Positions 20,401 through 39,412 of a stretch of DNA of 64,000 bases are shown piece after piece. The notes beneath the pieces were generated by a model that saw only the letters and a list, made by a program, of their open reading frames with translations, did no database searches and was not told the DNA's origin. The DNA is taken from assembly GCA_039621445.1 (NCBI GenBank), contig CP154954.1, positions 13,510,716-13,574,715 on the forward strand. The letters are read 5' to 3'. How positions within the stretch are numbered: the stretch's first letter is position 1; the number at the start of each line of letters is the position of its first letter. Origin of the DNA: Euglena gracilis (lineage: Eukaryota). Made by a program: the position numbers and the translations under genes.

Positions 20401-21739
20401 CGTTCAGGTGCCACAGAATCTGCCGGGCAACGAATGCCGCACGCAAAAACGGGCAAACTTTTCAAGGCTTGGGAAAAAAGCAAAGCCACAACACAGAGGA
20501 AAGGTTCAGAACTCCATCTTGTCATTGTCGAGGGGGGAATGGTTGCAGCGGCTCCATCGACAACTTGGACATCTCAGAATTAAGCATCAGTCTCCTCTGC
20601 CTTCTTAGACTTGATTGAGTGGGCTTCAGACGAACTTCTGTCTTCATCTCATCTTCCACATCACATTGCTGAACATTGCATTCCACATCCTGCAGCATGT
20701 CATCTCTGGCAATGTCTTCGTCAGTCTGCACCCCAATGTCAGAACTTGTCATCACACATTGCCTCCCATGGCATTTACAGCCGGGGTACAGTCGCAGCAG
20801 GGGCTCGTCAGTGAACTGTCTTCCATGAACTCTCTTGAATCCATTCTGACTTCTCCTTGATGTGCACAGCACACATAGGCATTCCAAGCAGTAAGACCAT
20901 TCATTCCTCAAGGCCAAACTTGCACCTTTCACACATGCCAGCTTCAGGCCATGGCAACTGCACAAATGGCTGAACCACACACAGACACAGACAGAGATCT
21001 TGCTGGCGGGCATCCCACCTTGACTTCTCTGGTGGAGGTTCCTCTGGGGGCGAACCACTGATTGTACAGGGCTGAATACACTGATTGTGTCGGACTGAGT
21101 GCTCCTCCGCCGCTATTCCCTGGTCTGGCATGTGCCAATCAGACGTTCCGAAACTTGAACTTTTTGCTTTTTTCCCCTTGGGTGCCAGTTGCCAAAATAA
21201 TTTTAATAGCACGAAGCAGTCCCTAAAATGCAGAACAATGCATTGCCAGGATGTGAATTAGGATCTTCCTCTCCGCGCGACTGTCACAGGGTGTTGGCTC
21301 TCACTGGTTCAGCTCAGCAGGGAAGGGGTGAAACCCCAAAGGCACTCCCCTTGGAGATCCCAGTGACACTCCCTCAGGGGTGGGGAGGGTCCACTGGGAG
21401 GTTCCTCCTTGGAAATGATGGCCCAGTTCCGGCCACAGGGGGGGGCCAGAATAGGAATAAAACTTCCGACACAAGTCGGCACGAGGAGCCAAAAAACAAC
21501 ACTACGCCGGAAACTGGCCCGGCTCGGGGGTTTCCGCCTCACCCCAGCACTGCCGTGAAACATGGTAGCACAGGATCGAAACAATCCAAGCATGTTATAG
21601 GCATAACTGACTGCCATTTTAGGCCAAATAAGGTGCAACCGAACTGGCCCTGCCTTTTTCAATGACTTTCACGAACTCTGTGTGCAATTTTTTGGTCAAA
21701 AACTCAGCAGCCCTCTGGGATTCAAACTCCAAATCCGAG

Positions 21740-23700
21740 AGAGCCGCTGTCCGTGTCCCAGCGCAAACCGTCGTCCTCCGCGGTACAACGTGCACCGTCC
21801 CACCCGCAGCCGTCCCGCACGCAAGTGCAGCAGTCCGCGCTGTCGTCGCATCCGTCTGCACCGGCATTGCGTCCCCCCAGCACCGCCGCCCCACCAGCGC
21901 ATTGATCAGCACAGCACCCGGCATCACACCCGCAAGCCGCGACCGCCGCCAATGTTCAAGCCGCCAGCACCAGTTCCGGTACCGGTGGCTTCTGCTCAGT
22001 CTGTCCGAGTCCAAGTTCGACCAATCTCCAAAGTGACTGTGCCAGTGTCAAGCCAGCCGCTGTGTGCCGGAGGCACCGAACCGCAGTGTGCAGAAGGCAC
22101 GGTGTACCAGCAAGCCGTCCATCCCAACCCATTGCATGCCATGCATCAGACACCCGCGGTGGCGTTTGCCACCGGGATGTCTCACCAGCCAGCCTTGCAG
22201 CCAACAGCCCACACTGCCGGCGGGCCCCCGCCGGTGGTGCAGTCCGCGGTGTGGCAACACCGGCGGACCCAGCCAACCCGCCCGCGTCGCGGCTCCGACC
22301 CGAGCTGCGGCCCGTGCGATCCCGCCCGGTTCCGACAAATGCAGCACCGATGCTCCTCATGCTTGCGGGGGCTGGTGTGCCCGCACCCGTGAGGGGAACC
22401 GCCATCCGAGAACTCCAAGCAACCACCCTGCCGCTGGCGGCTCCCAGCTGCAGATACTGCCACCGCACCTCCTGGATACCCTCTGGGGGTGGCATCCGGG
22501 CCGGATCTCGCATCCTACCTCCGTGAGGTGGAGGGGATGGTCCACCTCCTTAGAGTGGCGCAGGGGGTGGCGCTGCTGCGGAGTACGGTGGATGAGGCGA
22601 CGGCGTTGCACATCGACCTGATGGTGGAGAACTACCCGGAGATGCCGTTCGAGGAGCTGTGGGCGGGGCTGGACATGGAGCTGGGTGGAGACGACCGAGA
22701 AGGTCTACGAAGAAATCTCCGTCTCCTCAAGGTGGTGACGCGGGGCAAGCTGACGGAAAGACAGTGGCGGGAGTACTTTGTCAACGCCAAGGTGGAGGCG
22801 ATGCAAATCGGCTCATAACGGACGTGGAGCTAGCCCGCCTGGTGGTGGACCAGCTAGGCCAGCCATGGAGAAAGCAGCTGGCCCATGCGAAGGATCGGCG
22901 CCGTGACCACGCGGCGCTGTTCCTGGAAGGCCTACCGGAGGATGTGACGGTGGCGGAAGCGACGGAGATGGTGGTGGAAGAGACGGGCGTCGTGCCGAAG
23001 AAAGTGGATCGCCAAGGCCGAGGAATCAAGGTGGTCCCAGTGGATGCCGACCACCGGGCGGCCGTCAAGGCGGTGTACGACCGGCAGAAACTGTCTGGTG
23101 GAGCCATAGTCCGGGTGGCACCCGACACTGTGGAGTCCACCGCCACCCCAGTCAACGACCTCATGGTGCGGTGGCTGAGGGTGGATGGGCGACCACGAGC
23201 CGGTCCATCGCAAGCCGGCAGCACCCACGAGATGGCAGCGGGAAGTGGACGTCGAAGATGACGATGACGAGACCGACACCAAGGCCAATCAAGGATTCCA
23301 GGAGGAGTCCAACATCAAGGAAGTGAAGAAGGAGACGGGGAAGAAAGAAAAGAAAGGCAACACAAAGAAGGTGGACGAGACCAAGGACCCCAACGATGCA
23401 CAAGGCTGGGCTGGCCGAGGCAAAGGCAAACAGCAGCCATGGAATGAAGAATGAACCGGCAAAGGCGAAGCCCAAGGGAAGGATGGTGGAAAATGCAAAG
23501 GCAAGGGTAAGGGGAAAGGCAAAGGCAGTGAGAATGGTTCCGGCACAGGTGAAGCGGCCGGGACGACATCGACGCTGCAATGACGGGGCCGTTCAGGTAC
23601 CAAGGGGAACGGCCTGGACCGGCAGTCAACCCCCCAGCCGACATCCGCACCAGGGAGACGGCTGGTAAGAGCAGTGGAGTATGAAGAAGAAGGATGGCGG
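21740..23700 (+). pseudogene. gag-like region of a Ty3/Gypsy element (frameshifted)
   Basis: GC-rich coding-like sequence with a Pro-rich N-terminus, helical ORFs at 22489-22818 and 22659-23261, and a KGKGKGKG tract. Lies upstream of an aspartic protease motif. Confidence 0.55.
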
Positions 23701-24082
23701 CTGGTCCAAAGAAAGAGAAGAGGCAGGAAGTCTCCAAAGGAAGGGGTCAGACCCTGCCTGCGGCAGGTGTCGAAGGCGAAGCCGACACCATCCTCCCCAT
23801 CAACATCACTGAGTCTGCCGAAGTCAAAGGTGACATCATCAACTCCGACAAACCCGAAGGTGACATAATCGTCCTCATCAACGCCGACGGAATAGGCAAC
23901 GAAGAGTCGGCAAGAATCGTCAGCAACAGCGCTGACAACATCATCACCGAAGGCATCATCAAGTATCCACAAGACACCACCACAAGAAAGACAAGCACCG
24001 GCGAAGGAGGTGAAGAAAAGCACCGACGAAGAAGGAGAGGAAAGAGCCGATTAAGAAGGCCGCGAAGGAAGAGAAGGAAAGA

Positions 24083-24569
24083 TGGGCGCTGGACCTGTTC
24101 TCCGGAACGGCCAGTGTCAGAAGAGCGATGGCGAAGATGAGCTTCAAGGTGATCAGCATGGACTGGGACGAGCAGTGGAAGGCGGACATCGTGGCCGACG
24201 TGAGGAAGTTGAGGTACATCGCGGCGTCCCTGCCCTGTACCGAGTACTCCACAGCCCTCACCACCCGCAAGACCAGGCTGCGCCTGGTGAATTGAAAACC
24301 CGAGGTTCGGCTTGCTGCGGTAGCGACGAGTCCTGGCGGCGTGCGGTACATGGATGTGGACTACTGCCGCTTCGCGGAGTATGGCTATCGCAAGCCGTCC
24401 CGCTTCTGGGCTGGACGACGTCATCTGCCGTGTAAAGTGCAGCAGCATGGTGGAAGGACCAGACGGCGAATTACGACACCGGCTGCAGCTGGGAGGCACT
24501 GGCGGCGAGCGCAGGTGCACAAGGGAGGAGGCCTATTGCATCCCGGAGGGGGTGGTGCGGTACCTGTGA
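24083..24569 (+). pseudogene. C5 cytosine DNA methyltransferase domain within a retrotransposon polyprotein (disrupted)
   Basis: Ordered motifs: ALDLFSGTASV (motif I), VISMDWD..ADIVADV (II/III), AASLPCTEYS (IV, catalytic PC), W*IENP (VI), DYCRFAEYGYRKPSRFW (VII/VIII) and AYCIPEGVVRYL (C-terminal). Contains deletions, stops and frameshifts. Confidence 0.85.
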
Positions 24570-24699
24570 CTCGGGGTGAAGGCACAGGAAGAAGTGGCGG
24601 CGGCGGAGGAGGCGAACAAGAAGCGGAAGGTGGTGGTGCGGCCGTGGGAGAACCTCCCGAACCGGCCGTTCACGGTCTGTCCGACAGAGAACCGTGGGG

Positions 24700-24963
24700 G
24701 GTGTAACATACTGCTGATGGACGTGGAGGTGGAGGCAGGCGGGATGAAGACCCAGGCGAAGGCATTGATCGATACAGGGGCGCAGACTTCCCTCGCGAAA
24801 TGGAGCTGTTCCCGAAGTCGGTGTTCCACGCGACGGCGAGACCCTTGGTGCTACGCACGGTGAGCAGGGAAGCACCACCCGGAGGACAACGAGAAGCAGA
24901 GCTGAATCTGTCCTTCGCGGCCCAGACTGACGACGAGGAGCGGAGACCAACGTCGTGGACAAC
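24700..24963 (+). pseudogene. Retropepsin-like aspartic protease (truncated by a LINE insertion)
   Basis: KALIDTGAQTSL at ~24760-24795, followed after a frameshift by PLVLRTVS..PGGQRE. Confidence 0.8.
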
Positions 24964-27510
24964 GGGGGGGGGGGTTCGGTCGGAGCGGCGAGGAGGGCCT
25001 CACCGCCGGGCGCTGTCTTGGCCGTGATGACCGTGATTACCACGATGTCAAGCGCCCCATCCCTCCTCCATTAGGTCGGTGGACCCTCAGCCGCTCGACC
25101 ATGACGGGGTAGTGGGGGCTTCACAGGTTGTCGCCAACAGTCCAAGGTGGACTGACGCATCGGTGGGGGGACGTCGGCATCGGCGTCCGGGGACCGCGCC
25201 GTGGCTGACGACCTCGGCGGGGCTGGGTGCTTGGCTAACGCTGCGCGTGCCGGAGGGGGTGTCCGCCGCCTCTTTGCTGGAGCCAGGTCCTCTACTGCTC
25301 GAGCCCACCGGTGGTCCGCCTCTTCCGCCGGCGCGGAGACCCGTAAAGACGACAAGAAATCCTTCCATCGCTGCTGGAATAGCTCGTATCAGGCAGCCGG
25401 CTCCCCAACGGTGGGCGACACGATCTGCACTGGCCAGCGCTGGTTGTGGCTGTCCCGAGGCCAGGTCCCAGGGCACCGACCACGTCTCGGGGGATCATGT
25501 AGTCCCGCAGCTCGGCGTCCATGCCCACCTGGCGGCGCAGGCGTCCGGTGAAACCCAGGACCAGCGCGGACTCCGAGCTGGCCGCCGTGGATTGGAAGGG
25601 CATGCCGTTGTCCACTTCCCACAGCAGCCGGAGTGCGTTGCTCGGCAGCCCCTGCTCCACTGCCGCCGCCCGCAGGTGGGGGTGGTACCACAGCCAAGCA
25701 TCCAGACCAGCATCCACCTTCGCGATGGTTGCCACGGGGCGAGGTTCCGGACGGGCAGCCAGCTCTCGCTCAGCTCGTCGACGCCAGCGGTCTGCATCAC
25801 GATGCACAGTGGGGGTGCGGTTGTACAGCCACCGGCCGCCACACAATGAGTGCCGCTGGAGGGGGGGGCTCAGGTCCACGGAGCCCACCAGGTTGGCCAG
25901 CGCCTTGGCGAAGCCGGACAGGCAGTGAGCGGGCAAGGAGCCAGGGGTGGTCGTGTAGTGCTTGCCCACCAACTACTCAAAGAGGTCCAGAAAGTCCTCC
26001 GAACGGCTGCCGCGGCTGGCGGGGCAGACCACAGTGTGCTCCCGCAGTAAGACAACTAGGCGTGACTGCAGCCAACACCGCCTGGGGCTACCGCACGGGG
26101 GGGCCTGCGGGGGACTGGCTGGTGCCAGCGGGGCATTGGGGCGCTGGCGCTGCTGAGGCTCCCGGGACCGCAGCTCGGGGACTCTGAGACGCAACTCTTG
26201 GGGCAATGCACACGAGGAGCTGCTCGCCGCCGGGGCGGAGGACACGACTGGGGGGGCTGCTGTGGGATGGTCGGAGGGCGTGCGGCCAGCATCGGGGAGG
26301 TGGCCATGAGCTCACCACGACGGCGAAGGAGTTCCTGCCGTGCGCTCAGCCAGGGCCACGTGCAGCGCGGGCATGAACCGCTTCGCATCCGCCACTGCGA
26401 GAGCGTGATAGTGCAGCACGGTGGAGGGGACCAGCGCCGCCAGCAGGGGGAGGCAGTGCGCCGTCAGCCAGGCCGGTGAAGGGGGCGGCACACTCTGCTT
26501 CGAGGTGGCGCCCACACATCCAGCAGGGCCGGGAGGGGGGGGCAGCGCCGGTAGCCGGACAATCCATCAGCACGTGGGAGTCGTCCTCCACCTCCACCCC
26601 GCAGCACAGGCAGACAGGGGACAACACCCTGCCCGTGCCTTGTCGCGCCATATGCTCCTGCGTAGCGAGGCAGCCATCACGTACACAGGCGACCCACTTG
26701 ATCACCCGCGGGGCCACCATGTGCACGAAGCCACCGGACTGGACCACCGGCTGGCGGAAGATGGTGGTGGAGGAGGCCCAGTGGAAGTCCAAGCCCACGG
26801 GGAACAGGATGTCCAACCGTGGGCGAGGTCCCTTGGAGGACCACAGTCGCCGACAACGTCGCCTCCATGCCACCGGGATGGAGGAAGCACCCGACGCACT
26901 TCCACACGATCCGGGCAGCGAAGCCGACGCGTCTCCGGCATCGAGCCCCAGCCACGGAGGAGCTGTAGTGCGCACAGCGAGGCGGTGAGGACCTGAGTTG
27001 GCTGCAAGCCCAACGCCAGCTCCGTGGCGAGCAGCTCGCAACGGGTGCTGCTGAGCGGTGCGGGGACATGGAGCAGCAGGGACTCACCATCCACCGGACG
27101 CCATACCGCCGCACCTCATCCTCCGGCGGAGACCAAGCCGTCCGTGAACACCGCCTGCTCATGGGCGTCGTTGATGTCGTCTGGGGACGGCAGGGACGGG
27201 CCGCCAGGGACAGCTCCGGCAGCAGCCGTGACCAGGATGCGGAGCGGCTGCACTGCGCGTTCCGCTTGACGGAACAGCCCACCGCCGCAAGACCAGGGGA
27301 CGCTTGAGCACCACCGCGCCATCCCCTTCCGGCAGCACGACCGGTTCGTCCGCCGGACCCACCATCGGGACGTCCTCAGGAGGCCGGACAGACGGCGAGG
27401 TTGTCTGCGCCGCCGCTTGCTTGGCCAAAGCATCAGCAGCATCATTGCATACCGCCTTCGGCAGCCCGCGCTGGACACCACGGTCGTCATGCGCCGGCAC
27501 TTTCTCCACA
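24964..27510 (-). mobile_element. 3' portion of a LINE (RNase H end, CCHC finger, long C-terminal extension), frameshifted
   Basis: VEKVPAH...CNDAADALAK (RNase H end) and CLCCGVEVEDDSHVLMDC (C-x2-C...H-x4-C). Stop at ~25071, then a ~100-bp 3' UTR ending in a C11 run. Confidence 0.8.
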
Positions 27511-27609
27511 CAGTGGAAGATGCAGCAGCTGCTGTGTACAAACTGGGGGAAGGCTGTGGCAGTTGATAAATGGTGGTCCATGGGATAACCCCAGATGGCA
27601 ATTGAGCAT

Positions 27610-27790
27610 TGTCTGTGCAGGGTAGTCTCTCTCCTGCCCATAGTCCTGCTGCTGCAGGGGTCTTCTCTGTGCAGGGTTCTCTCTCTCCTGCCCATACTCG
27701 TGCTGTTGCAAGGCTCTCCTCTGTGCAGGGTATGCTCTCTCCTGCTGCTCATACTCCTGCTGCTGTTGCAGGGATCTTCTCTGTCCAGAG
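27610..27790. repeat. ~57-60-bp tandem repeat, 3 copies
   Basis: CTGTGCAGGGT..CTCTCTCCTGC..CATA.TC.TGCTG.TGCA recurs three times. Confidence 0.8.
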
Positions 27791-28055
27791 CAATCTCTGA
27801 CAGGTCTGTCCTGATCAGTCCTCCTCCAGTCTGGAGGGAAATCAGTTGCACTCCTCCTGTCCAGAGGGTCACTACCACGCTGTACAATGATCTATTTCTT
27901 TCAGGGATTCTGCTGCGACTTCTTGTCTGTATTTCCCAGTACTCAGCTCTTCTTTTCCTGTCAGCCTGCTTTCGTTCCCAGCTTACGAAAGCCAGGATGG
28001 CATCGACAATTTGCCGGGTTTCTGGCAACTACTTTTCTGGCTCGGATTTCATTGC

Positions 28056-28784
28056 ATGAACTTCGGTTCATTTGCAATGCCCGCCAGTAAAGCGCACTAC
28101 TTGCCACATGTAAAGCTACAATACGGATGGGAATCAGCCCCTGACGCACTGAATACAATGTTCGACAATATCCGAAAAATCGGACCACAAGGAATACAAT
28201 GGGAAGTATTCCCACTTCCAAAGGATATACAGTTGGTGACACACGAAATGTTCTGTTACAATTACCAAATTTTCCTCAACGAACACTACGGCCCCCACTT
28301 CCAAGTGGTCGGAATCGACCTGACATACCCACAAAAATTCGTCGTTTGGTGCACACACTGCCTCCACAAGTTCCCCGTGGACTTCTGGGGCTTTGGTGTG
28401 CGCGGTCGGACAACCGACCGCCCAAACGCACAAAGGGCGCAGCCCCACCAACGGGAATTGGCGGAGGCCCAACAACAACGAAGACTACTTGGACACATCT
28501 GCCACAATCCCCTCGAAGTTAGGGAAATAGGATACGCCAGACGAAACCACCGACAAATGCTTCTGCACATGCAGACGTTCCAATGGAGAGCATGGGTGTC
28601 CTATGCTCTGGAAATCTACAATTTATTCAACCCAAAACAACAACTCCCACAGGAATACCTCCCTCTTCGACCTGAATGGGACGAAGACGGAAAACGGAAG
28701 TACATCAAACGCCTGTTTGGCGAAACCCTCCGAAGAGAGGATTTTGCCCCATTTTTCAAGGGCAAACGCACAAATAAGGAGTAA
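28056..28784 (+). CDS. Unknown protein ORF-Y (~242 aa), cargo of an LTR element
   Basis: Open, non-repetitive frame with globular-looking composition and WCTHC and HICH motifs. Lies just upstream of ORF-X on the same strand. Confidence 0.55.
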   Translation: MNFGSFAMPASKAHYLPHVKLQYGWESAPDALNTMFDNIRKIGPQGIQWEVFPLPKDIQLVTHEMFCYNYQIFLNEHYGPHFQVVGIDLTYPQKFVVWCTHCLHKFPVDFWGFGVRGRTTDRPNAQRAQPHQRELAEAQQQRRLLGHICHNPLEVREIGYARRNHRQMLLHMQTFQWRAWVSYALEIYNLFNPKQQLPQEYLPLRPEWDEDGKRKYIKRLFGETLRREDFAPFFKGKRTNKE

Positions 28785-29069
28785 AAAAATTTGTCGGATG
28801 GCAAAACTTCCGTCTGCGACCACGTATAAAACTCCCTGAACCCCAACCTGCGGAGTCCGAGACAACACAGTCTGCAGCTGAACAACCTCCAACGGCTGCA
28901 CAATCTACAACGTCAACAGCCAAAGCAGCAGCGAAGTCTGCAACCAAACGTTCGGAAGAACGTTTGGCACAACCTCCACCTACACCTACCATGTCTGTGG
29001 AACACATTCCCGTACACTCTTCAGACTCTTCGTCGTGTTTCCTCTTCTGGGTCATCCAGCGATGAGGAA

Positions 29070-31310
29070 ATGGAAGAAGGGACAGACAATGAACACAGTA
29101 CACGCTCCGTCTCCTCCGCATCTGTGGAGTCTGAACCCGAAGATGCCGGCGTACAACATGCTCTAAGGGCCGAAGTGCCAGTTACAACGCCTGCTCAAAC
29201 ACGACCACAAACACCATTGCCAGACGCGGAACCTGACGCGCCTGCAGAATTTACAATGGCCGAAGTGCCTGAAGACTCGGCCGCAGCGCCTTCGGCAGAC
29301 GTGGTTCCACCTACTCCCGCACATGCGGAAGCTGGACAGGAAGCAACTGATGCTGAGATAATCGCATTTCGCGAACTGATCACAAGACAACAACGGGAAG
29401 GTATCGAAAGATACCAAGACCCCGACGACTTTATACTCATACCACCACAAGTTGGACGCGCTGCAGAACGCGGAAGCGTCCGAAGTGGCGTAGCCTCGAT
29501 GGTTGCAATGTTGCGATCGAGATCTTCCTCTTCCACGCGAAGTCCCCGTGACACGGGACTTGGCGAACAACCCATACAAGAAGCTCCGGCTTCAGCCCCG
29601 GCATTGGCAGCAGACGCGGCCAGTTCTACTGCTGACGCCCACACACCCGAAGCGGTGACAACAACCGAATCGACTACGGTCGAACAAACGCCACCACATG
29701 ACACAACACCCGTAGTGGTACACACACCTGAACAGGTGGTACCGACGGCTCCTGACGTACCACCTACCACCACACCAACGGTCAAACCTGCTCCAAAGTC
29801 GCCTGCAGAATGCCCCCTTCCGCCACAGCGGAAAGAGAAAGGCAGTAAGCCTAAGGCTAAACCACAGCCTGCAGAACCGTGCAAACCTGCTGAACGACAC
29901 AACGAACCAAAACCACCTCCACCTGGGAGTGGTAGCAAATCAGGAAAGCGGGCGAAGACCCTAGCTGCTACCACACCAGCTCCAACATATACCGAAGTGG
30001 CCGGGAAAGGCCGGGTCACTTCTACCCTCCGAGGTAGAACTCGACAAGATACAACGTCTGAGACCTCGCAAGAGGAAAACATGCCGGTTGACGATAATGC
30101 CACCCTTTGGCATGAGGACATTATCTCCAACCTGCCGAGCGTCGAAGAACGCATTGCCATGATACAATCAGCCCGCGAACGCGGAATTTTGTTGAACAAG
30201 TGGATTGAACCACTCTTCTTCAACGACCAGAAGCATAACTACTATGTTCGCCATATTTGGCGATTCTACAATGCCAGATCACCAAGAGTGTTTGCCCAGT
30301 ATCTTGGGGAAACATTCCTGTTTGACAATAGGCCGAATGGCCAAACAACTTGGCTCTGTACTGTCTGTCACAACATTCGTAACAGCACGCCAGCTGTGCA
30401 TGTCTGTTATGCAGACAACAAACGGAAAAACTTTCACCACAATGAGTTCGTTCCACACACAGCCGCTCTGATTTGCGGTGACTGTCTCCTTACCTGGAGA
30501 CAACTGAACAACTTCCGGTGGTCGGAAGAAGACAGAGACCGTGACGTACCTGTTTTCTGTGTCAAGTGCCTACGGGCAGACATATGGTTGCCCGCAGATG
30601 GCGGAAATCTCAAGATCGTACCCGGAAACGAGGACGTTCTGGAAGATTTCCTGAATTTCTACAAAACAAAACGACAAATGTACCAGCACAAAAGCTTCAA
30701 GAAAGCTCAGGCTTTTGACCGCGGCGGAATCGCCTTTGACTTCCAAACTGATTCCGGCGGAATCAGACTTGCTGTGGAATGTACAAAAGGGCGATTGCCC
30801 CTACTCTTCAATGATGACGACTGGAAACGAGTCATTTACCCACTCTTTACAAAGCCTTCAACGGTTTCTGAAACCACACAACGATGGTTATTGCCTGACT
30901 ATCCACCTGAACGACATGGTTACGAACATTATTCAGAATGGGTTGGTACCATTCTGAAACCACACATAACCCGCTGTGCCTATGCATCCCGCGCGCACAA
31001 CGTTGATTTCAACGCTCTGCCTGGGATGCCACCACAGGTACCAGCAAAAGATCCAAGATGGAACTATTACATATGGCCTGCAACTTTTCCGAGAGTTCTC
31101 TGGGAAAATTTGCAGCTTTACCTCCACAAGCGAGCTGAAACGCTCAAAACCGAACTGCCCAGGGAAATACAAGAAGTCAAAAGTTGGGTTATCCCACGGA
31201 TCAACATGGATGATCCTGACAAGGATACCCTAGACTTACGTCCAACTGAAATGACCTTGGTACAAGACCCACACATGGGTGAGTACTTCAAGGAAACCCG
31301 CAAACGTTGA
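29070..31310 (+). CDS. Unknown protein ORF-X (746 aa): disordered Pro/Thr-rich N-half and CxxC-rich globular C-half
   Basis: Long open frame with motifs CTVC..HVC, CGDC and CVKC. Two diverged homologs in this window are conserved at protein level. Ends ~380 bp before the PPT and 3' LTR. Confidence 0.8.
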   Translation: MEEGTDNEHSTRSVSSASVESEPEDAGVQHALRAEVPVTTPAQTRPQTPLPDAEPDAPAEFTMAEVPEDSAAAPSADVVPPTPAHAEAGQEATDAEIIAFRELITRQQREGIERYQDPDDFILIPPQVGRAAERGSVRSGVASMVAMLRSRSSSSTRSPRDTGLGEQPIQEAPASAPALAADAASSTADAHTPEAVTTTESTTVEQTPPHDTTPVVVHTPEQVVPTAPDVPPTTTPTVKPAPKSPAECPLPPQRKEKGSKPKAKPQPAEPCKPAERHNEPKPPPPGSGSKSGKRAKTLAATTPAPTYTEVAGKGRVTSTLRGRTRQDTTSETSQEENMPVDDNATLWHEDIISNLPSVEERIAMIQSARERGILLNKWIEPLFFNDQKHNYYVRHIWRFYNARSPRVFAQYLGETFLFDNRPNGQTTWLCTVCHNIRNSTPAVHVCYADNKRKNFHHNEFVPHTAALICGDCLLTWRQLNNFRWSEEDRDRDVPVFCVKCLRADIWLPADGGNLKIVPGNEDVLEDFLNFYKTKRQMYQHKSFKKAQAFDRGGIAFDFQTDSGGIRLAVECTKGRLPLLFNDDDWKRVIYPLFTKPSTVSETTQRWLLPDYPPERHGYEHYSEWVGTILKPHITRCAYASRAHNVDFNALPGMPPQVPAKDPRWNYYIWPATFPRVLWENLQLYLHKRAETLKTELPREIQEVKSWVIPRINMDDPDKDTLDLRPTEMTLVQDPHMGEYFKETRKR

Positions 31311-31693
31311 GGGTTTCCTACATCGTACAATCAGCTACGGCTGAGATGGGCGTAGTCCCACATAATGAGCGAAGTCTCGAGCGTGAATACGCACTTAATC
31401 ATCGCGTTCAACACCGTTTCAAGACCCTGTGGCGGAATCGCCTTAAGTTCGGTCGATAAAATGTTCATCGCGAAGACTCAAGACTACAAAGACACTACGG
31501 TGTCAAGTAAGAAGACGCACAAAGCACAGCGTGCGCGCCAGAATTCTTTTGCGCTTTGTGCTCCAAACACGGTAACCGTAATTGGGAACCAGACAATGGT
31601 ATCCTGGTACTGTCTCCCTGAACCTGGGACTGTGCCTGGCATCCCGACTGGCCTGGTCCAGAAGGGAAATCGGGCAGAGCCCTGGGAGGGGGA

Positions 31694-32125
31694 TGAGTAC
31701 CAGGCAGCCATTCTGCCATAGCACTGTGTACCAGATACAATGGGCTACGGCCTACAATCTGGCTACGGCCGGGCTGTACACAGTGGCATGGTTAAACCGT
31801 AAGACAAAGAGAGAATCTCAGAGCTAGCGAAAGATTAGCGAAAGTAACTGGTTCCTAATTCAAGATTATTGGGTTTAGTGCTTTGCAATTCTCTTTTGGA
31901 ATTCTGAGGGCGAAGTCCCATTTGTGTACAAGTTTTATTTCTTTCTTTTACAAAGATCGAAAGAGCAAAAGTCACTTTCAAATAAGGGACTGCGGTCCCA
32001 CCAATTCTTCTGCTTGTGTGCTTTGCATTCAAAAGTGGAAAAGGGAAACAAATTTTACTGTTACTCCCCCCACGGGCTTTTCGGGAGGAAAGCATAAGTA
32101 GAAAAGCCGGGGTGGGACGTACACT
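31694..32125 (+). repeat. 3' LTR of an ORF-X family element
   Basis: PPT GGGAGGGGGA upstream; ends TGAGTACCAGGCAGCC...GGACGTACACT, as in 15661-16128. Confidence 0.75.
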
Positions 32126-33117
32126 CATCACGTCGGACCGGGGCCCCCACTTCGGGGTGGCCTGGTGCAGGGCCATGTGCAAGGCTGGGGGTGCGCCACG
32201 CCTTATCCCAGGCGTACCACCACGAAGGCAACGCCCGCTCGGAGGTCCTCGGCGCACAGATCCAGAAGCGGCTGAAGAAGCTGAAGGCGGCGGAGGGCGT
32301 GGCGTGGCCGGAGGCGCTGCCGCGAGCCCTGCAGACCCGGCAGGTGCTCTTCGGCCGCGAGCGGTGGTACGACGGGTTGCCGTACCAGCCGCCCACGCAG
32401 GCCGAGGACGCAGTGGCCTTCTTCGAGCGCATGCAGGACATCGATCGTCGTGTCGCAGACATCTTGAACGAGGAGCACAGCAAGACAGCCGAGACGGTCA
32501 ACAAGCGGCGGAAGGAGCTGCCGGAGCTGGACATCAACGACAAGGTCTGGTACCTCCGCCCGTGCACCCGCTCTGGCGAGAAGCTGGAGACTTACTGGAT
32601 CGGGGCGTGTGTGGTGGCAGAGCGCACCAGTGAGCACACGTACGTGCTCCAGATGGAAGACGGCCGGAGGTTGGTGGCCCACCCATCACAGCTGAAGGGC
32701 TACCACCACGATCCGGCCCTCATGGGGCCACCGCTCCGTCTCTTCCACTTCCACCAATCCAGGGGGGAGGAAGGTTCCCGGCTGGACGGGTGGGAGGTGG
32801 AGGCGATGATCACCCACCAGCGCGATGCTAACAGCAACCTCAAGTTCCTCGTCAAGTGGCTGGGGTACGAGGAGAAGACGTGGGAGCCGCTCAGGCACTT
32901 CTTCTACCGGTACGCCTCCCTGATTGTGTCGTACTTCGTCGAACACGACAGCATGGAGGACATCTTGAAGTACCGCTCGAGGTTCCCGGAGGAAGCCCAC
33001 ATCGCCATATGCCACGGCGTGGAGACGGAGAAGGATAAGGAGAAGGAGTTTGGGATGTCCTGGGAGGAGCCACCAGAGGAGTGGATGTTGCAGGAAACCG
33101 AGGACGGAGACGTATGA
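32126..33117 (+). pseudogene. Ty3/Gypsy integrase C-terminal half plus chromodomain
   Basis: ITSDRGPHF and SQAYHHEGNARSE (integrase core), KVWYLRP..KLETYWIG (GPY/F-like), and WEVEAMITHQ..LKFLVKWLGYEEKTWEP (chromodomain). Confidence 0.88.
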
Positions 33118-34229
33118 CGAGAAGGTGATGATTCTGATGGAGACGATGACGAAGGTGATGGAGGAGGCGAAGGAGATCGAGACCAAGCAGACGGAAGAGA
33201 CGCTGGCCCGGCGGGTCCCCAACAAGCGGCCCACCCCAGCTACCCGGTAAGGGTCCACCGGCAGCCCGCGAGCGGCGAGCGCACCGTCTCCATGCGATCC
33301 GCGTCGGCGAGGGATACGCTCTCCCGCACTTCCCTTGCCGCTGCCCCACCGTCCACCACCCCATCGTTCCCCATGTCCCACGCGTACCCACCCCGCAGTC
33401 CAGGCGTACCTCAGAGACCCGGTCCCGAAGTCTCCCGTGCCCCCACGGGTAGAGGTCGCCGCCCCCGCATGTCGACCCTCAGGGACGCCCCAGCTCAAGA
33501 TCCCCCCCTCCCACCATGGGCCCCGTTCCCGTGCACCCCCAGGACCCGTCCCTGCGGCGAGGGGGCACCAACACCGGAGAACGTGCCCCTGCATGGCCAC
33601 GGTGCGACGCAGCCCTTCCTTCCCAACAAGGACGCCACCCCAGCCCCCTACCCACACTCCATTGGGAAATGGAAAAAGCCTGGTGTCAAACTGGGATATT
33701 TACAATGGTGGTCGTGTTCCAGTTCATCTTTCTGTTCCTTCCCCTCGCCTTCGACGGTCAGGACAGGCGGCTGGCAGCGCGCGCGCAGGAGAAGATGATG
33801 ATGCTCTGCTGTCGTCGTGAGGATATGCTGTGACGTCGGCGGCAGCTGGTTTCATCCCCTTTTGACCTGATGGCTACTGTGGATACTCTCACCCACCAAC
33901 CCAACCTCTTACACTGGTGTGCCACCCCTTCTCTTCCCCAACCGAAGCTGAGTCACGGTGAGCCTGGCCGAGGCCGAGCCAGGAGAAGGGAGACGAGAGA
34001 GAGCCCAGAGAGTAGAGACAGAGAGAGGAGAGCGAAGAAGCACGGGGCGAAAGCCCCGGAGACAGGCGAGCAAAGAAGGAGAGGAAAGGAGAAAGAAAGG
34101 GACCCCACCCCCAAGGGGAAACGACCAGGGGACCCGAGGGGGGGAACCCAACCGACCCCGGGGACAAGGGGGGCCCAGAGGGGACCCAGGAAAGCCCAAC
34201 ACCCCAGAGGGTGGGCACCCAAGAGCGGC

Positions 34230-35306
34230 CCAGAGGGGCCGTTCAAGAACGGGCCGTGGGGGGCAAGCACGTCCCAGAGAGGACGGCAAAAATGGCGGCC
34301 GGGCGGTCGCCCAGAACCGGGGGAGAGCCGTAAAGCAGCCCTGGGAGGCCGCCCACGACCCCAGAGGGTGAAGGGCGCCGAAATGAGGCCCAGGGCGGCC
34401 GCCCACGACCTGAGATGGGGGGGGCGCCGAAAAGCGGCCTGACCCCGGGTAGGGGGGGGAGTGGGGGTGAATAGAGGCCCAGGAGGGCCGCCCACGACGC
34501 CAGAGGGGGGGGGGCGCCGAAAAGCGGCCCAGGGGGGCCGCCCACGAAGCGGGGGGGCGGAACCGAAGAGCTTCCCAGGATGGGCCGCCCAAGACCACCC
34601 CGGGGGGGGGCAAGCACAGCCCGAGGGGAACGGCAAAAAAAAAGGGAGCGGCCGGGGGGCCGCCCCGACCCGGGGCGGGGGGACCGAAGAGCGCCCCAGG
34701 GAGCCTCCCACGACACCAGAGGTGGGGGGGCCAAAAAGAAGCCCAGGGGGGCCGTCCAAAAAAGGGGAGGGGCACAGAAGAGCGGCCCAGGGGGGCCGCC
34801 CAAGACCACCCTGGGGGGGCGGCAAGCACGGCCCAAGGGTGCCGGCAAAAAAAAAGATGGTGGCCTGGGGCCTCCTAAGACCACCCCGCGGCGGGGACCG
34901 AAGAGCCGCCCAGGGGGGCCGCCCACGACCCCAGAGGGGGAGGGGGCTCCGAAAAGCGGCCCGACCCCGGGAAGGGGGGTGCGAAAAGCGGCGCAGGGAT
35001 GCGGCCCACGAACCGGGAGGGGGGGGCACCGAAGAGTGGCCCATTGGGGCCGCCCGAGACCTCCCGGGGAGGGGGGCGGGCTCCGAAGAGCGGCCCAGGG
35101 CGGCCGCCCAATACTACCCCGGGGGGGGCAAGCACGGCCCAGGGGGGCCGGCGAAGAAAAGAGAGAGGGAGAGTGGCCGGGGGCCTGCCCAGACCCGGGG
35201 GGGGGGGAGAGCACCCAAGAGCAGCCCAGGGGGGCCGCCCACGACCCCGGAGGGGGGGGGGGCGCCGAAAAGCGGCTCAGTGGGGCCGCCTACGACCCCA
35301 GGGGGG
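34230..35306. repeat. G/C-rich satellite (AAGAGCGGCCCAGGGGGCCGCCCACGACC-type subunits); continues at 43243-43400
   Basis: Many degenerate copies of the motif separated by G runs. Confidence 0.85.
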
Positions 35307-36292
35307 TGTTGGGGGGTCCGGGAAACCTGCGGGAAGAACACCCACTCCGCTGAAGGGGGGGGTGAGGCTTCCCATGGCGAGTCCGCTCATCCCGCGAACA
35401 AGGTGAAGAGTGAGGAGAAGTTGTCCCGCCCCTCCTGAGGTTTGGGGGGGGCAAGTCCTTGGGTGCCTCCTGCCGAGGCGGAAGAAGTGTTCCTCTTGGC
35501 ATCCCCACGGGGGGGGGATTCAAGGTCTTTCTGAGCGCTAAAAGGGGGGGGGGGGTGTGCGAGGAGTCGCTATGACCGCACATAGCCCCTGCGCCTCCCG
35601 AAAGGTGAATGGCCGTTTGTTTGCAAGCTTGTGCGAGCCAGTGTGTGACCCTGTGGTTGGTTAAACTGGCCTGTGACCTGGAATGATAGGGGAGAAATAT
35701 CTTTGCACTTTGGATTTTTCTTCCGGGATGAAAGTTGGGTTCTCACATACGGAATAATGGCCAGAGTCATTTTCCAGAGTGTGGGACCTGGGGGACAGGG
35801 CGCAGGAAGAGAGGAGGGAATGACGCCAAAGGTAGGGAGTGCCTTAGCATAGGCTCCTATCCTAATCTGTGGCCATGCCTAATCAGTAACCTTCCAATAA
35901 CCCAGCCAGCACATGCATAAGTGTGAAAAGGGCAGTGGGCAGTATGGGGAGGTGGGGGTTGGTAGGGCACATGGTCTCATGGAGTTGCCCGCGTTCTGCA
36001 CATTTGTTTTTCATGTTCCACTTTCCACAGTGGGTTTCCCAGTTTTCCAAGTTTCTCAAACATGCAAGTCGTCAAGATTCTTGGACTATGAAACATCATT
36101 GAAAGAAGTCAAGGAATTCAATCAAAGACATTGTCAGAAGTTGAAACCACGGTAACATTCGTCGGCTGAACGGTCGCTCGTGAACCTCCATCACCTTTGT
36201 TTTGTTGGTTGCGAAGTCAGGTTGTTTTGCCTGTTTGTTTGGGTTTTGTTTTCCCAACATAGACCTTGGATTTACCCAGAAACAGTCTGGAA

Positions 36293-39200
36293 ATGTTTCA
36301 TCCGGGAGGAATGGTGTGGGGTTGGGAAGGAGTCCAGATGGCGGGGAGTTCTTTCCCCCCCCTGGACTTGACAAGGGGGTTGGGTAGGAATCAGGGACCT
36401 GAGCCCACCCTGGTTTTACCCAGAAGTGACCCAGGTATGTTTGGGGATATGCAAGGGGGGGTATGCATGGAGCTTGAAGGGATTCGAGTTTGTGTTGGAT
36501 CCCCTGAAACTGAGGTGGGGAATAAAGATCCTATGCCGCCGGAGGCCCATCCCGGGTTCCCCCTGTGCGGGGGGGCGGGCGCGGGGTGGGCGTCCCGCGC
36601 GAACATGGTAGCAGAGGTTTGTGATTCGACCATGTCCGTGAACATGGTCGCAGAGGTTTGTGATTTGAACATGTCCGTTCACATGGTCATAGATGTTGGT
36701 GCATTTACTATGTCTTTGGGCATGGTTGCACAGGTTGATGCAGTGATTTTGTCCCCGGTGGACATGTTTTCAGCAGGGGTTTATCCAACTGACATGGTCC
36801 CTTTGGAGGTAATTATGGAAGGGTCATTTTTGCCTTTGCCAGAAACAGAAATTTGTTTTTTTCTTGCCCCACCACTATCAATGGTTCAAGACACCCCCAC
36901 CGAATCACCTGTGAATTCCCAGGTGCTGCGAGAGGGCCTAGAGGACCGAGGCCCTGGCCTGGAGGCCACAAGTCCAATTGGCCGAGGACCGAAATATTAT
37001 CAATTGAACGAGGAAGGCCGACGGGACCAGAAGCCCAGCAAGCAAGACGACGAAGTGGCAAGGTGTGACGCTGGTGTTCAACAATTTTCAGTCCCAGGGG
37101 GTCTGGAAATTAGGGGGGCTGAGTCGCAATTTATGATTGGAATTGCACAGCCCAGCCCAACGCCAGCTCAGTGCCAGCCACAGCCAGCAGAAATGAGTCA
37201 GCAAGTTTTTACCCACGAGAGTTTGGGAGTTGAAGCCCGTTTGCAATTTCAATTGGGAATTGCATTGCCAAACGCAGGGCCAGCCCAGCCCCAGCCAGCC
37301 GTCAGGGGGCCAGCCCAACTCCAGCCAGCTGGAGCAGGGATAGCTCAGCCAGTTGCGCAGGAGTCAGCCCAGCCCCAGCCAATTTTGCAAGGGCCAGCCC
37401 AGCCAATTATGCAGGGGCCAGCCCAGCACCAGCCAAACGCAGGGCCAGCCAAATCAACCGGCCCGCAGTTTTTGGGTCAGAGGAGCCCAGAAATTGCAGT
37501 GCCCCAGTCAATTACACACGGGCCAGCCCAGCCAACCATGCAAGGGCCAGCCCAACCCCAGCCAATTATGCAAAGGTCAGCCCAGCCCATCATGCAGGGG
37601 CCGACCCAGTCAATTGGCCAGCAGTTTTTGGGTCAGAGGAGCCCAGAAATTGCAGTGTCCCAGCCAATCATGTACGGGCCAGCCCAGCCCATCATGCACG
37701 GGCCAGCCCAGCCCATCATGCAGGAGCCGGCCCAGTCAACCAGCCAGCAGTTTTTGGGTCAGAGGAGCCCAGAAATTGCAGAGCCCCAGCCAATTACGCA
37801 CGGGCCAGCCCAGCCCATCATGCAGGGGCCGACCCAGTCAATTGGCCAGCAGTTTTTGGGTCAGAGGAGCCCAGAAATTGCAGTGTCCCAGCCAATCATG
37901 TACGGGCCAGCCCAGCCCATCATGCACGGGCCAGCCCAGCCCATCATGCAGGAGCCGGCCCAGTCAACCAGCCAGCAGTTTTTGGGTCAGAGGAGCCCAG
38001 AAATTGCAGAGCCCCAGCCAATTACGCACGGGCCAGCCCAGCCCATCATGCAGGGGCCAGCCCAGCCCATCATGCAGGAGCCGGCCCAGTCAACCAGCCA
38101 GCAGTTTTTGGGTCAGAGGAGCCCAGAAATTGCAGAGCCCCAGCCAATTACGCACGGGCCAGCCCAGCCCATCATGCAGGGGCCAGCCCAACCCATCATG
38201 GAGCCAGCCCAGCCCATGATGCAAAAGCCAGCCCAGCCCATCATGGAGCCATCCCAGCCCATGATGCAAGAGCCAGCCCAGCCCATCGAGCCAGCCCAGT
38301 CCATGAGGCGAGAGCCTGCACAGCCCATCATGGAGCCAGCCCAGCCCTTGATGCAAGAGCCAACCCAACCCATCATGGAATTGCCAACCCGGCACCGGCC
38401 AATTGTCGTGGGGCCAGCCCAGCAGCAGTCAGTGGTCGACAGCTCAGCTCAGCCACAGCCGACTGTCGACAAGCTAGACCAGCTCCAGTCAGTTACACAA
38501 AAGACAGCTCAGCCGACCAGCCAGCATTGTTTTGGTGAAAGTGGTCTGGGATTGGCAGAGTTGGGGAGGGTCCGTGGGCCAGTTTCAGAGAAGCAATTTC
38601 ACCTGGGAAGTGCATGTTCAAATAATCATAGTCCGACCTCTCCCCAATCAGTTGCCCCAGAGTCAGTGTGGTCAGCCGGTGAACAATCTTCTAGTCCAGT
38701 CGTGGAGCCAGAATCAGAATTGCAATTTCAGGCAGGATTTGCAATGTCGGCAGGGACAGCAGGCACAGACGTCAGTCCTGCTGGCTGGGCCAACAGAATG
38801 CGTCTGGCTTCTGAAAGGGTGGAAAGATTTCGTGCGGAGGCTGGAAATTGCAGGGAAAAGAGGTTGGCATGGTCTGAAATGTTGCGGTCTTGTTCGGATC
38901 GCATGCATTCTATGATGGAATTGGGTGAGCAACTTTCGAGTCACAGTCCACCTTGTCTTTTTACCCCAGCCACCCCTTCTGCGAGTTCACAAGGCATATG
39001 TCACGGGTCGAGTGGGCAGGGGGCAGCCCAGCCCTTGCCAACTCAGCCCCAGCAAGCTGCAGGGGGGCCAGCCCAGTCAGAACCGACTGCTCGGCCAGAA
39101 CCGACAGTTCAAGACCTAGTCCAGTGGGGCAGCCAGCAGAATTTCAATTTTCCATCCAGGGAATGTCCTGCCGTCAAAGGACGATTTCCTGTGATAGGAA

Positions 39201-39412
39201 TCGGGGTGAAGGCAGCAGGGAGGGGGGAGGATTTAGTGGGGGTTGAGGCCGAACCCCAGCCCCCCATTCCATTGGTTTCAGCTTTGCCCAAACCCACCGC
39301 GAGTTTGATAGCCCAGCCCAGCATGCCCACCGGGGGTTCGGGAAACCCACAAGATTCCCTGGGTGGGACAGGTCTTGGGCAGAGTCAGGCATCGAATGTG
39401 TCACGCATGTAG
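36293..39412 (+). CDS. Gln/Pro-rich repeat ORF (~1040 aa) inside an LTR element, function unknown
   Basis: Open frame from the end of the 5' LTR through the PBS. In-frame 21-bp units (PAQPIMQG-like) and longer units (QQFLGQRSPEIA) at ~37140-38400. Confidence 0.5.
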   Translation: MFHPGGMVWGWEGVQMAGSSFPPLDLTRGLGRNQGPEPTLVLPRSDPGMFGDMQGGVCMELEGIRVCVGSPETEVGNKDPMPPEAHPGFPLCGGAGAGWASRANMVAEVCDSTMSVNMVAEVCDLNMSVHMVIDVGAFTMSLGMVAQVDAVILSPVDMFSAGVYPTDMVPLEVIMEGSFLPLPETEICFFLAPPLSMVQDTPTESPVNSQVLREGLEDRGPGLEATSPIGRGPKYYQLNEEGRRDQKPSKQDDEVARCDAGVQQFSVPGGLEIRGAESQFMIGIAQPSPTPAQCQPQPAEMSQQVFTHESLGVEARLQFQLGIALPNAGPAQPQPAVRGPAQLQPAGAGIAQPVAQESAQPQPILQGPAQPIMQGPAQHQPNAGPAKSTGPQFLGQRSPEIAVPQSITHGPAQPTMQGPAQPQPIMQRSAQPIMQGPTQSIGQQFLGQRSPEIAVSQPIMYGPAQPIMHGPAQPIMQEPAQSTSQQFLGQRSPEIAEPQPITHGPAQPIMQGPTQSIGQQFLGQRSPEIAVSQPIMYGPAQPIMHGPAQPIMQEPAQSTSQQFLGQRSPEIAEPQPITHGPAQPIMQGPAQPIMQEPAQSTSQQFLGQRSPEIAEPQPITHGPAQPIMQGPAQPIMEPAQPMMQKPAQPIMEPSQPMMQEPAQPIEPAQSMRREPAQPIMEPAQPLMQEPTQPIMELPTRHRPIVVGPAQQQSVVDSSAQPQPTVDKLDQLQSVTQKTAQPTSQHCFGESGLGLAELGRVRGPVSEKQFHLGSACSNNHSPTSPQSVAPESVWSAGEQSSSPVVEPESELQFQAGFAMSAGTAGTDVSPAGWANRMRLASERVERFRAEAGNCREKRLAWSEMLRSCSDRMHSMMELGEQLSSHSPPCLFTPATPSASSQGICHGSSGQGAAQPLPTQPQQAAGGPAQSEPTARPEPTVQDLVQWGSQQNFNFPSRECPAVKGRFPVIGIGVKAAGRGEDLVGVEAEPQPPIPLVSALPKPTASLIAQPSMPTGGSGNPQDSLGGTGLGQSQASNVSRM

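Follow-up and report, generated by a model that had tools for sequence, protein, structure and literature searches.

A family of chromovirus-type Ty3/Gypsy retrotransposons whose Pol opens with a compact C5 cytosine methyltransferase domain, and the remains of this domain in a disrupted copy from Euglena gracilis

The Pol polyprotein of the retrotransposon family described here starts with a compact (~205 amino acids) C5 cytosine methyltransferase (MT) domain that is in frame with the aspartic protease. The family was recognized from a single damaged copy in a stretch of 64,000 nucleotides of Euglena gracilis DNA (contig CP154954.1, positions 13,510,716 to 13,574,715 of the forward strand), referred to below as the window, and all coordinates are positions in this window unless a protein is named. 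We place a probability of about 0.85 on the combined identification of the domain as a C5 methylase and of its location at the head of Pol, between a putative gag and the protease, in a chromovirus. The window copy is dead and does nothing; it is probably best described as an old member of the chromovirus-type Ty3/Gypsy LTR retrotransposons that has been disrupted internally.

The remains of the MT domain extend over 24074-24566 of the plus strand in four pieces that lie in alternating frames. The first (24074-24292) carries LDLFSGTAS and SLPCTEYS in one frame, the second (24291-24320) reads IENPRFGLLR in a frame different from that of the first, the third (24329-24409) contains DYCRFAEYGYRKPSRFW at 24359-24409, and the fourth (24414-24566) contains CRVKC..RHRLQLGG..YCIPEGVVRYL. 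Motif I (F-x-G-x-G) is represented by LDLFSGTAS, in which the final Gly is replaced, motif IV, the Pro-Cys with the catalytic Cys, by SLPCTEYS, and the glutamate of motif VI (E-N-V) by IENP in a shifted frame. The initial annotation had reported an ordered set of C5-MTase motifs on this strand ~200 bp ahead of a protease; all of them are present at 24074-24566, and the protease motif DTGA lies 205 bp after the last MT codon. These ordered motifs are real MT remains and are far beyond chance. In tblastn comparisons, residues 69-211 of a related protein, P0002, match 24074-24409 (E 3e-31) and its residues 170-342 match 24285-24794, which includes the start of the protease (E 1e-24); P0004, P0008, and P0012 also match the MT remains. 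The first piece alone matches the phage protein family phrog_757, "DNA methyltransferase" (E 3e-4), and none of the three MT-bearing frames of the window matches Pfam PF00145 at E≤1. Because the copy is fragmented, this failure is a property of the wreck and not of the family, and the profile check proposed in the initial annotation, negative for the window's own pieces, is positive, although marginally, for intact relatives (22.9 bits for P0002, with a cut-off of 22).

The damage to the copy can be read against P0002, P0004, and P0008. Relative to these proteins there are three stops (24293-24295, 24321-24323, and 24567-24569), four frame changes (near 24285, 24325, 24410, and 24800), and two internal deletions, one of ~11 residues after ..RKLRY and one of ~20 residues before IENP, so that the earlier description of the copy as disrupted is borne out. 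In addition, ~7.1 kb of foreign DNA (24965-32120, not assigned to a strand) replaces the end of the protease, the reverse transcriptase (RT), RNase H, and the N-terminal half of the integrase; RT and RNase H, missing from the window copy, are present in P0008, and residues 985-2122 of that protein have no tblastn match anywhere in the window. Within the foreign DNA lie a LINE-like zf-RVT remnant (26349-27083, minus strand) and two plus-strand open reading frames (27891-28781 and 28830-31307) with no match to a Pfam family, and its summed contig depth in one DNA run is several-fold different from that of the element.

The architecture of the family is established by relatives in which these parts are uninterrupted. 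P0002 (343 residues), found among three relatives in a word-indexed protein search with the first MT piece, has an uninterrupted MT domain followed by the same protease start as the window. HMMER, run exhaustively with P0002 as the query, matched 2767 cluster representatives at E≤1e-3; a threshold of E≤1e-10 left 1282 of them and one of E≤1e-30 left 155. Pfam was then used to scan 20 of the longest of these matches. The order MT, protease, RT, RNase H, integrase, and chromodomain is that of P0008 (2513 residues), which has a DNA_methylase match at residues 627-730 (25.3 bits), DTGA at residue 920, and matches to RVT_1 (88.6 bits), RT_RNaseH (77.7 bits), and Chromo (28.2 bits), together with a match to rve of 27.6 bits that is under the cut-off of 32.6. 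P0012 has the order MT-RVT_1-RNase H and P0004 the order MT-RVT_1. A metagenome scan with P0002 as the query returned one contig, L001, of 2.4 kb and 98% identical to P0002, in which a single open frame of 648 codons runs from a basic linker through the MT to the protease; upstream of it lies a Lys/Gly-rich frame closed by an in-frame TGA. The proposal that a Gypsy-type lineage carries its own methylase between gag and protease is supported, with a putative gag, by the occurrence of the same order, in one frame, in L001 and P0008. Residues 629-984 of P0008 match the window at 24089-24964 and residues 2123-2463 match it at 32121-33090 (E 2e-65, tblastn); since one protein thus matches both the MT/protease and the integrase/chromodomain fragments, a one-off insertion, or a family whose intact members lack the domain, is ruled out.

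Upstream of Pol, a putative gag remnant occupies 22393-23583 of the plus strand in at least two frames (22393-22818, 22596-23261, and 23179-23583) and ends in a Lys/Gly-rich tail. The designation as gag is suggested by its position upstream of Pol, by this tail, which has a counterpart in L001 in a tblastx alignment, and by the in-frame stop that aligns with that of L001; these features agree with the earlier view of the region as gag-like, but homology does not confirm it, as no Pfam family was matched and no homologues were found in the "longer" or "near" length classes. Its single-sequence fold is poor (pLDDT 37). The stop, a TGA at 23581-23583 on the plus strand, is in the same alignment column as the TGA of L001 (446-448) and is flanked on both sides by coding sequence conserved between the window and L001, including, after the TGA, the shared EEEGWxxVQRKRRG (tblastx). 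A hairpin downstream of the TGA is not significant, being no better than in shuffled sequences (z −0.62 and −1.75).

The basic N-terminal linker of Pol follows at 23584-24073 (plus strand); it contains the conserved EEEGWRLVQRKRRG, is frameshifted after ~23868, and at 23683-23724 has 12 of 14 residues identical with L001 (tblastx), with 92% identity over 36 nucleotides by blastn. After the MT remains, further linker and the first half of the aspartic protease lie at 24570-24964 (plus strand), with DTGA at 24771-24782 in the sequence ALIDTGAQTSL, and the match ends at a run of G near 24960; this region aligns with P0002, P0004, and P0008 in tblastn searches, the alignments of residues 170-342 of P0002 and residues 724-984 of P0008 covering the linker and protease. 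Beyond the foreign DNA, 32121-33117 (plus strand) encodes the C-terminal half of the integrase core, an SH3-like region, and a chromodomain of the same element family, and is matched by P0106 (E 4e-46, tblastn) as well as by P0008. The chromodomain is recognized in the window itself (PF00385, 27.8 bits, cut-off 25.1) as well as in P0008, so that the association of a chromodomain integrase with the methylase-bearing lineage, which had been proposed initially, holds; no rve match is found on the window because only the last part of the integrase core is left. A repeat search and blastn with a word size of 9 revealed no pair of direct repeats flanking 21000-34000, and the LTRs may have decayed or been lost. 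Rfam and tRNA scans, and a search for the dinoflagellate spliced-leader motif, gave no matches.

The assignment of the domain to the C5 methylases is based on profiles, conserved residues, and a predicted fold. PF00145 is matched by the intact relatives P0002, P0001, P0008, and P0012 with 22.9, 23.7, 25.3, and 27.2 bits, respectively, and at E≤0.001 by 101 of 150 family members (best 3.4e-11); these scores are marginal, 22-29 bits for most relatives, and cover only positions 2-136 of the 324 in the profile. Residue conservation was examined in the best 150 relatives, with P0001 left out, and counted over the rows that cover each column. The catalytic Cys of the Pro-Cys motif and the Ser four residues after it are each kept in 146 of 146 rows, the Glu and Asn of ENP in 147 and 131 of 148, and the Phe and Gly of motif I in 114 of 119 and 118 of 120. 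Also conserved are Cys197 (144/145), Cys225 (121/127), Cys229 (122/125), and His242 (114/121), which sit in a short stretch that replaces the target-recognition domain and probably bind zinc.

It should be noted that the structure considered here is an AlphaFold2 model of a relative, P0002, built with 54 relatives, and not of the window copy. The model has pLDDT≥90 for 193 residues, and the means of 10-residue blocks are at least 89 over approximately residues 71-270. The top rows listed in a Foldseek search are all DNA cytosine-5 methyltransferases (DNMT3A/B/C, DNMT1, MET1, and DIM2; best E 7e-8), and C5 methylases fill the first 14 rows of a VIA all-against-representatives alignment, matched along residues 65-275, among them DNMT3B (Z 14.3, 200 residues aligned, rmsd 4.8), DNMT3A (Z 14.1), M.HhaI (Z 12.8, 196 residues aligned, rmsd 3.6), and a prophage methylase (Z 12.7). 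Generic Rossmann methylases align over residues 69-216 only, with Z up to 10.6; the model has the two-lobed fold of the C5 methylases, with the C-terminal strands that lie outside the Rossmann core present as well (65-273). When the A2 family profile was compared with structure chains, DNMT1 was matched at E 3.5e-5 and no DNMT3 chain was matched at E≤1. The domain shares homology with the C5 methylases and, as modeled, their fold. That live copies encode an active DNA methylase we consider somewhat better than an even chance.

The closest sequence relatives of the domain are viral. The best curated family for P0002 is phrog_757 (E 5e-18, 66 bits, compared with 22.9 bits for PF00145). Among phage genomes, 48 records match by tblastn, all at less than 60% identity, and of the 15 listed, those with an annotation bear the name DNA methyltransferase or C-5 cytosine methyltransferase; the product of gene Bcp1_133 of Bacillus phage Bcp1 (221 residues) is 32% identical to P0002 over residues 67-212. 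Queries of viral contigs with single proteins found nothing, but an alignment of 12 small complete family members (~200-220 residues) used as the query of IMG/VR was successful: a relative is encoded in 202 of the 293 candidate stretches, and 79 loci were retained. In the 4 of these 79 loci that were inspected, picked for long contigs or giant-virus bin names, a stand-alone methylase reading frame of 205-209 residues matches PF00145. The neighboring genes encode an NCLDV major-capsid N-terminal domain, a family-B DNA polymerase (PolB), and an SNF2 helicase in L052, a Pox_A22 resolvase in L026, ribonucleotide reductase in L005, and dynamin and DnaJ in L004. P0002 shares 40% identity with the methylase of L052 (E 1e-29). 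The earlier suggestion that the domain resembles prokaryotic or viral methylases more than DNMT1/3 is therefore correct for sequence, where phrog_757, the giant-virus contig, and Bcp1 are nearest, but not for fold, where DNMT3 chains score highest. As a separate observation, the nearest clusters in a language-model atlas are viral clusters of 213-246 residues, which serve as leads only.

Relationships were examined in a quick maximum-likelihood tree of 139 rows, rooted on the single phage protein of Bcp1 and constructed without DNMT1/3/5/6. The rows comprise the 110 of the 150 family members in which the domain has 165 or more residues (the remaining 40 being left out), the MT remains of the window read through with X at each break, the 27 of the 79 IMG/VR loci with near-full coverage, and Bcp1; retroelement context was defined as the presence of a protease motif or a Dam motif or a length above 600 residues. 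All 24 rows with retroelement context, together with the window, fall into one clade of 86 rows (SH-aLRT 98) that contains none of the 27 viral rows, and the viral rows and most of the small complete proteins form a grade beneath that clade. The window joins P0002, P0004, and P0005 (SH-aLRT 97-98), and these in turn join P0008 (98). In this quick tree, with its one-phage root and without DNMT1/3/5/6, a viral-to-retroelement direction of transfer is suggested rather than proven; the domain was probably captured once from a stand-alone methylase of the giant-virus type. The family is large, constrained, and apparently of viral origin.

Within the family the position of the domain varies. Among the proteins of the clade that is sister to the group with the window, the protease precedes the MT domain, and some of them (P0054, P0013, and P0018) also have a Dam-like adenine methylase, as does P0074, with the order Dam-PR-MT-start of RT, where PR is the protease; P0019 has the order Dam-MT-PR. 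A Dam domain is present in 5 of 150 family members and coexists with an aspartic-protease motif in one protein in P0019, P0054, and P0074. In P0106 the MT precedes the integrase core by ~290 residues and no RT intervenes, the stretch that separates them resembling, by eye, the N-terminal region of integrases, and in P0113 the MT domain is joined to a PHD finger.

Sequencing reads show that many similar copies are present in the genome. In one DNA run from the same organism, at a likeness of at least 90%, the summed contig depth of the element parts is ~33,000-59,000, as compared with 45-63 for clean single pieces, a ratio that is not to be read as a copy number; contigs with loose ends at the deletion points of the window indicate that other copies continue differently there. 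In samples of ~5% of each of three RNA runs, compared at 90% likeness with this dead copy, there is zero depth over the MT and protease part (24038-24905), and the sole peak (23170-23603) arises from reads that fit the Lys/Gly-rich tract only and continue into unlike sequence. The observed/expected ratio of CpG is 0.87 in the element parts and 0.67 in the window, so that heavier decay of CpG is not apparent in this copy.

In the mechanism that we propose for live copies, the MT would be made only within Gag-Pol, by read-through of the conserved in-frame TGA, and its location at the head of Pol would tie the amount of enzyme to this read-through; the case for read-through draws on two sequences, the window and L001, and P0008 was called as one uninterrupted reading frame. 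The domain would be packed into the particle with the element RNA and then cut free by the protease, and with S-adenosylmethionine it would generate 5-methylcytosine on the new cDNA or on DNA beside the integration site. The conserved Cys3-His cluster, at the position of target recognition, would be the site of contact with DNA. A new copy would thus arrive bearing the host's own mark. Self-methylation of the cDNA as the role of the domain is put forward tentatively, at rather less than even odds.

Several other readings have to be weighed against this one. That the motifs are a chance run, or that a methylase was inserted into this single copy to produce a chimera, might be thought of since the window pieces miss PF00145 and the copy is a patchwork with foreign DNA; this is refuted by the tblastn match to P0002 (E 3e-31), by the same order in one frame in L001, P0008, P0004, and P0012, and by the double match of P0008, and the linker and protease are conserved alongside the MT, so that it retains hardly any credibility. 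Low Pfam scores might likewise suggest a pseudo-enzyme retained for DNA binding or for particle structure, but the near-invariance of the catalytic Cys (146/146), the ENP Glu (147/148), and the Phe (114/119) and Gly (118/120) of the cofactor loop is not the pattern of a dead fold, and we regard this possibility as very improbable. A more substantial alternative is that the domain is a DNMT2-like m5C methyltransferase acting on the genomic RNA or on a tRNA primer. DNMT2 chains share the fold of the P0002 model (Z 9.5-10.5), the target-recognition region is tiny, the domain would share the particle with RNA, and, in the text of de Mendoza et al. (2018, PMC5890265), RNA methylation is raised as a possibility for the orphan SymbioLINE-Dnmt; nevertheless, the nearest sequences are DNA methylases, those of phages by depositor annotation and those on giant-virus contigs, and DNA methylases outscore DNMT2 in the fold search, which leaves action on RNA improbable.

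An enzyme that is active on DNA might also have a purpose other than marking its own element. Acting in concert with the chromodomain integrase, it could methylate host DNA around the insertion site and so establish heterochromatin or enlarge it; alternatively, it could shield the cDNA from a host nuclease or deaminase. Phage and giant-virus methylases of this kind are usually tied to the protection of viral DNA, and it is among these that the relatives of the domain are found. That both P0008 and the window combine the MT with an integrase bearing a chromodomain also speaks for a role of this sort. Options of both kinds are listed by de Mendoza et al. in the text of their paper (PMC5890265). 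The data do not separate these roles from self-methylation of the cDNA, and both may hold; taken by itself, a host-directed or protective role appears unlikely, though less so than action on RNA. Self-methylation of cDNA, with the qualification already given, is the role that we favor.

Cytosine methylation is a classic host route to the silencing of transposons, and a transposon that carries its own methylase reverses the usual picture. A broader interpretation, which we advance with some hesitation and hold to be a little less probable than its converse, is that an ancient and extensive clade of LTR retrotransposons acquired a miniature cytosine methylase of the giant-virus type once and later changed its place relative to the protease (giving MT-PR, PR-MT-RT, and MT immediately before the integrase), with some lineages pairing it with a Dam-like adenine methylase. 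Such elements would write DNA methylation with viral rather than host enzymes and would constitute a class missed by standard DNMT surveys, since their scores are at the edge of PF00145; surveys of the DNMT repertoires of eukaryotes may overlook the family. It would also provide a concrete link between the gene pools of giant viruses and retroelements, and a highly conserved domain of ~205 residues should be easy to express and assay.

Retrotransposon-encoded DNMTs have been reported previously, as the initial annotation noted for dinoflagellates and charophyte algae; the text of de Mendoza et al. (2018, PMC5890265) describes three layouts, SymbioLINE-Dnmt, SymbioDIRS-Dnmt3, and KnitGypsy-Dnmt3, in LINE ORF1, DIRS Pol, and one Gypsy element with a Dnmt3, respectively, and discusses them mainly as thefts of host genes. 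The arrangement found here is a fourth layout, in which the apparently viral source, the place at the head of Pol, and the chromodomain integrase in the same protein are new. A compact virus-type DNMT ahead of a chromovirus protease was not found described in the full-text literature that was covered, which excludes subscription journals and Repbase, and the text available from Morozov et al. (2019, PMC6338049) and from a 2025 survey (PMC12344493) contains no further retrotransposon-DNMT layout; within the same coverage, in which the layouts of de Mendoza et al. are the only ones described, the earlier suggestion of an undescribed architecture stands.

KnitGypsy-Dnmt3 of Klebsormidium nitens is similar to the present family in its Gypsy domain set, in the presence of a C5 methyltransferase within Pol, and in the conservation of key catalytic residues, but, according to its description in the text (PMC5890265), its methyltransferase is of the Dnmt3 type and taken as host-derived and the element has DIRS-like repeats, whereas the domain described here is a compact virus-type MT (phrog_757, with giant-virus relatives) and is accompanied by a chromodomain integrase. 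In the present family the MT stands at the very beginning of Pol, ahead of the protease; in this respect KnitGypsy-Dnmt3 was compared through its text description. SymbioLINE-Dnmt of Symbiodinium is likewise an orphan DNMT outside Dnmt1/3, is present in hundreds of retrotransposon copies, and has a viral source put forward as a possibility by its authors, but is part of LINE ORF1 and not of an LTR element, the comparison being one of description and not of sequence (PMC5890265). It is the only other orphan-type retrotransposon DNMT assayed in yeast, where neither it nor KnitGypsy-Dnmt3 produced DNA methylation, a result that the authors call inconclusive (PMC5890265). SymbioDIRS-Dnmt3 and the Dam-like methylases of DIRS elements (PF05869) resemble the present system in having a methylase in Pol and a cDNA that is made before integration, and differ in that DIRS elements have a tyrosine recombinase and lack a protease (PMC5890265).

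With the chromoviruses, the family shares the order of protease, RT, RNase H, integrase, and chromodomain, as seen in P0008, and the chromodomain and C-terminal half of the integrase that persist in the window. Ordinary chromoviruses are not known to carry a methylase. With the viral methylases, namely phrog_757, Bcp1_133, and the giant-virus reading frames of 205-209 residues, it shares the size of the domain and a set of motifs, LxLFxGTxS, SPxCTxYS, IENP, YCxY..KPT..W, and the Cys/His cluster; however, the viral enzymes are encoded by free-standing genes in the genomes of DNA viruses, whereas the domain described here is fused into the polyprotein of a retrotransposon.

In the window, the Lys/Gly-rich tail of the putative gag is separated from the beginning of Pol by an in-frame TGA (23581-23583), which aligns with a TGA at 446-448 in L001, a 2.4-kb metagenome contig, where it has the same position. 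The two copies are only ∼55-60% alike, yet the TGA is aligned in both, and this sequence comparison therefore suggests programmed stop-codon read-through. Hairpins downstream of the TGA were no better than those of shuffled sequences.

In the methylase domain, a near-invariant set of three cysteines and a histidine (residues 197, 225, 229, and 242 of P0002, an intact 343-residue relative) is located where the usual target-recognition domain has given way to a short segment and is probably a zinc site; its counterpart in the window is at 24365-24367, 24426-24440, and 24477-24479.

A very high-copy element on the plus strand (27891-32100) accounts for the bulk of the foreign DNA that interrupts the Gypsy copy. 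For this element, the summed depth of contigs from one DNA run at ≥90% likeness, which is not a copy number, is 160,000-640,000; its two long ORFs (297 and 826 residues) match no Pfam family. A GC-rich, LINE-like remnant on the minus strand (25000-28030) has a zf-RVT match (E = 7.6e-4) and an RNase H-like stretch read by eye. Elsewhere, two 1.3-kb direct repeats (35300-36605 and 41938-43242; 99.2% identity) flank a repeat-rich ORF of 1049 residues (36263-39409) and are candidate LTRs of a young element, and a tandem array with a unit of ∼1.1 kb (96-98% identity among copies) is present at 86-6458.

Free-standing methylases of the compact family, 205-209 residues in length, are present on the IMG/VR contigs L004, L005, L026, and L052, where the adjoining genes, taken together, include the giant-virus hallmarks major capsid N-terminal domain, PolB, and Pox_A22. 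In P0106 (850 residues), the methylase domain lies upstream of an integrase and chromodomain with no RT in between, and in P0113 (479 residues) it is fused to a PHD finger; the latter may be host-domesticated or a different mobile form. P0019, P0074, and P0054 are each a single polyprotein in which the compact cytosine methylase and an aspartic-protease motif occur together with a Dam-like adenine methylase (NPPY/F motif in all three; PF05869 match in P0019 and P0074), so that, as judged from these matches and motifs, an LTR-type element of this kind contains two different sorts of DNA methylase. Dam had earlier been linked to DIRS elements (PMC5890265).
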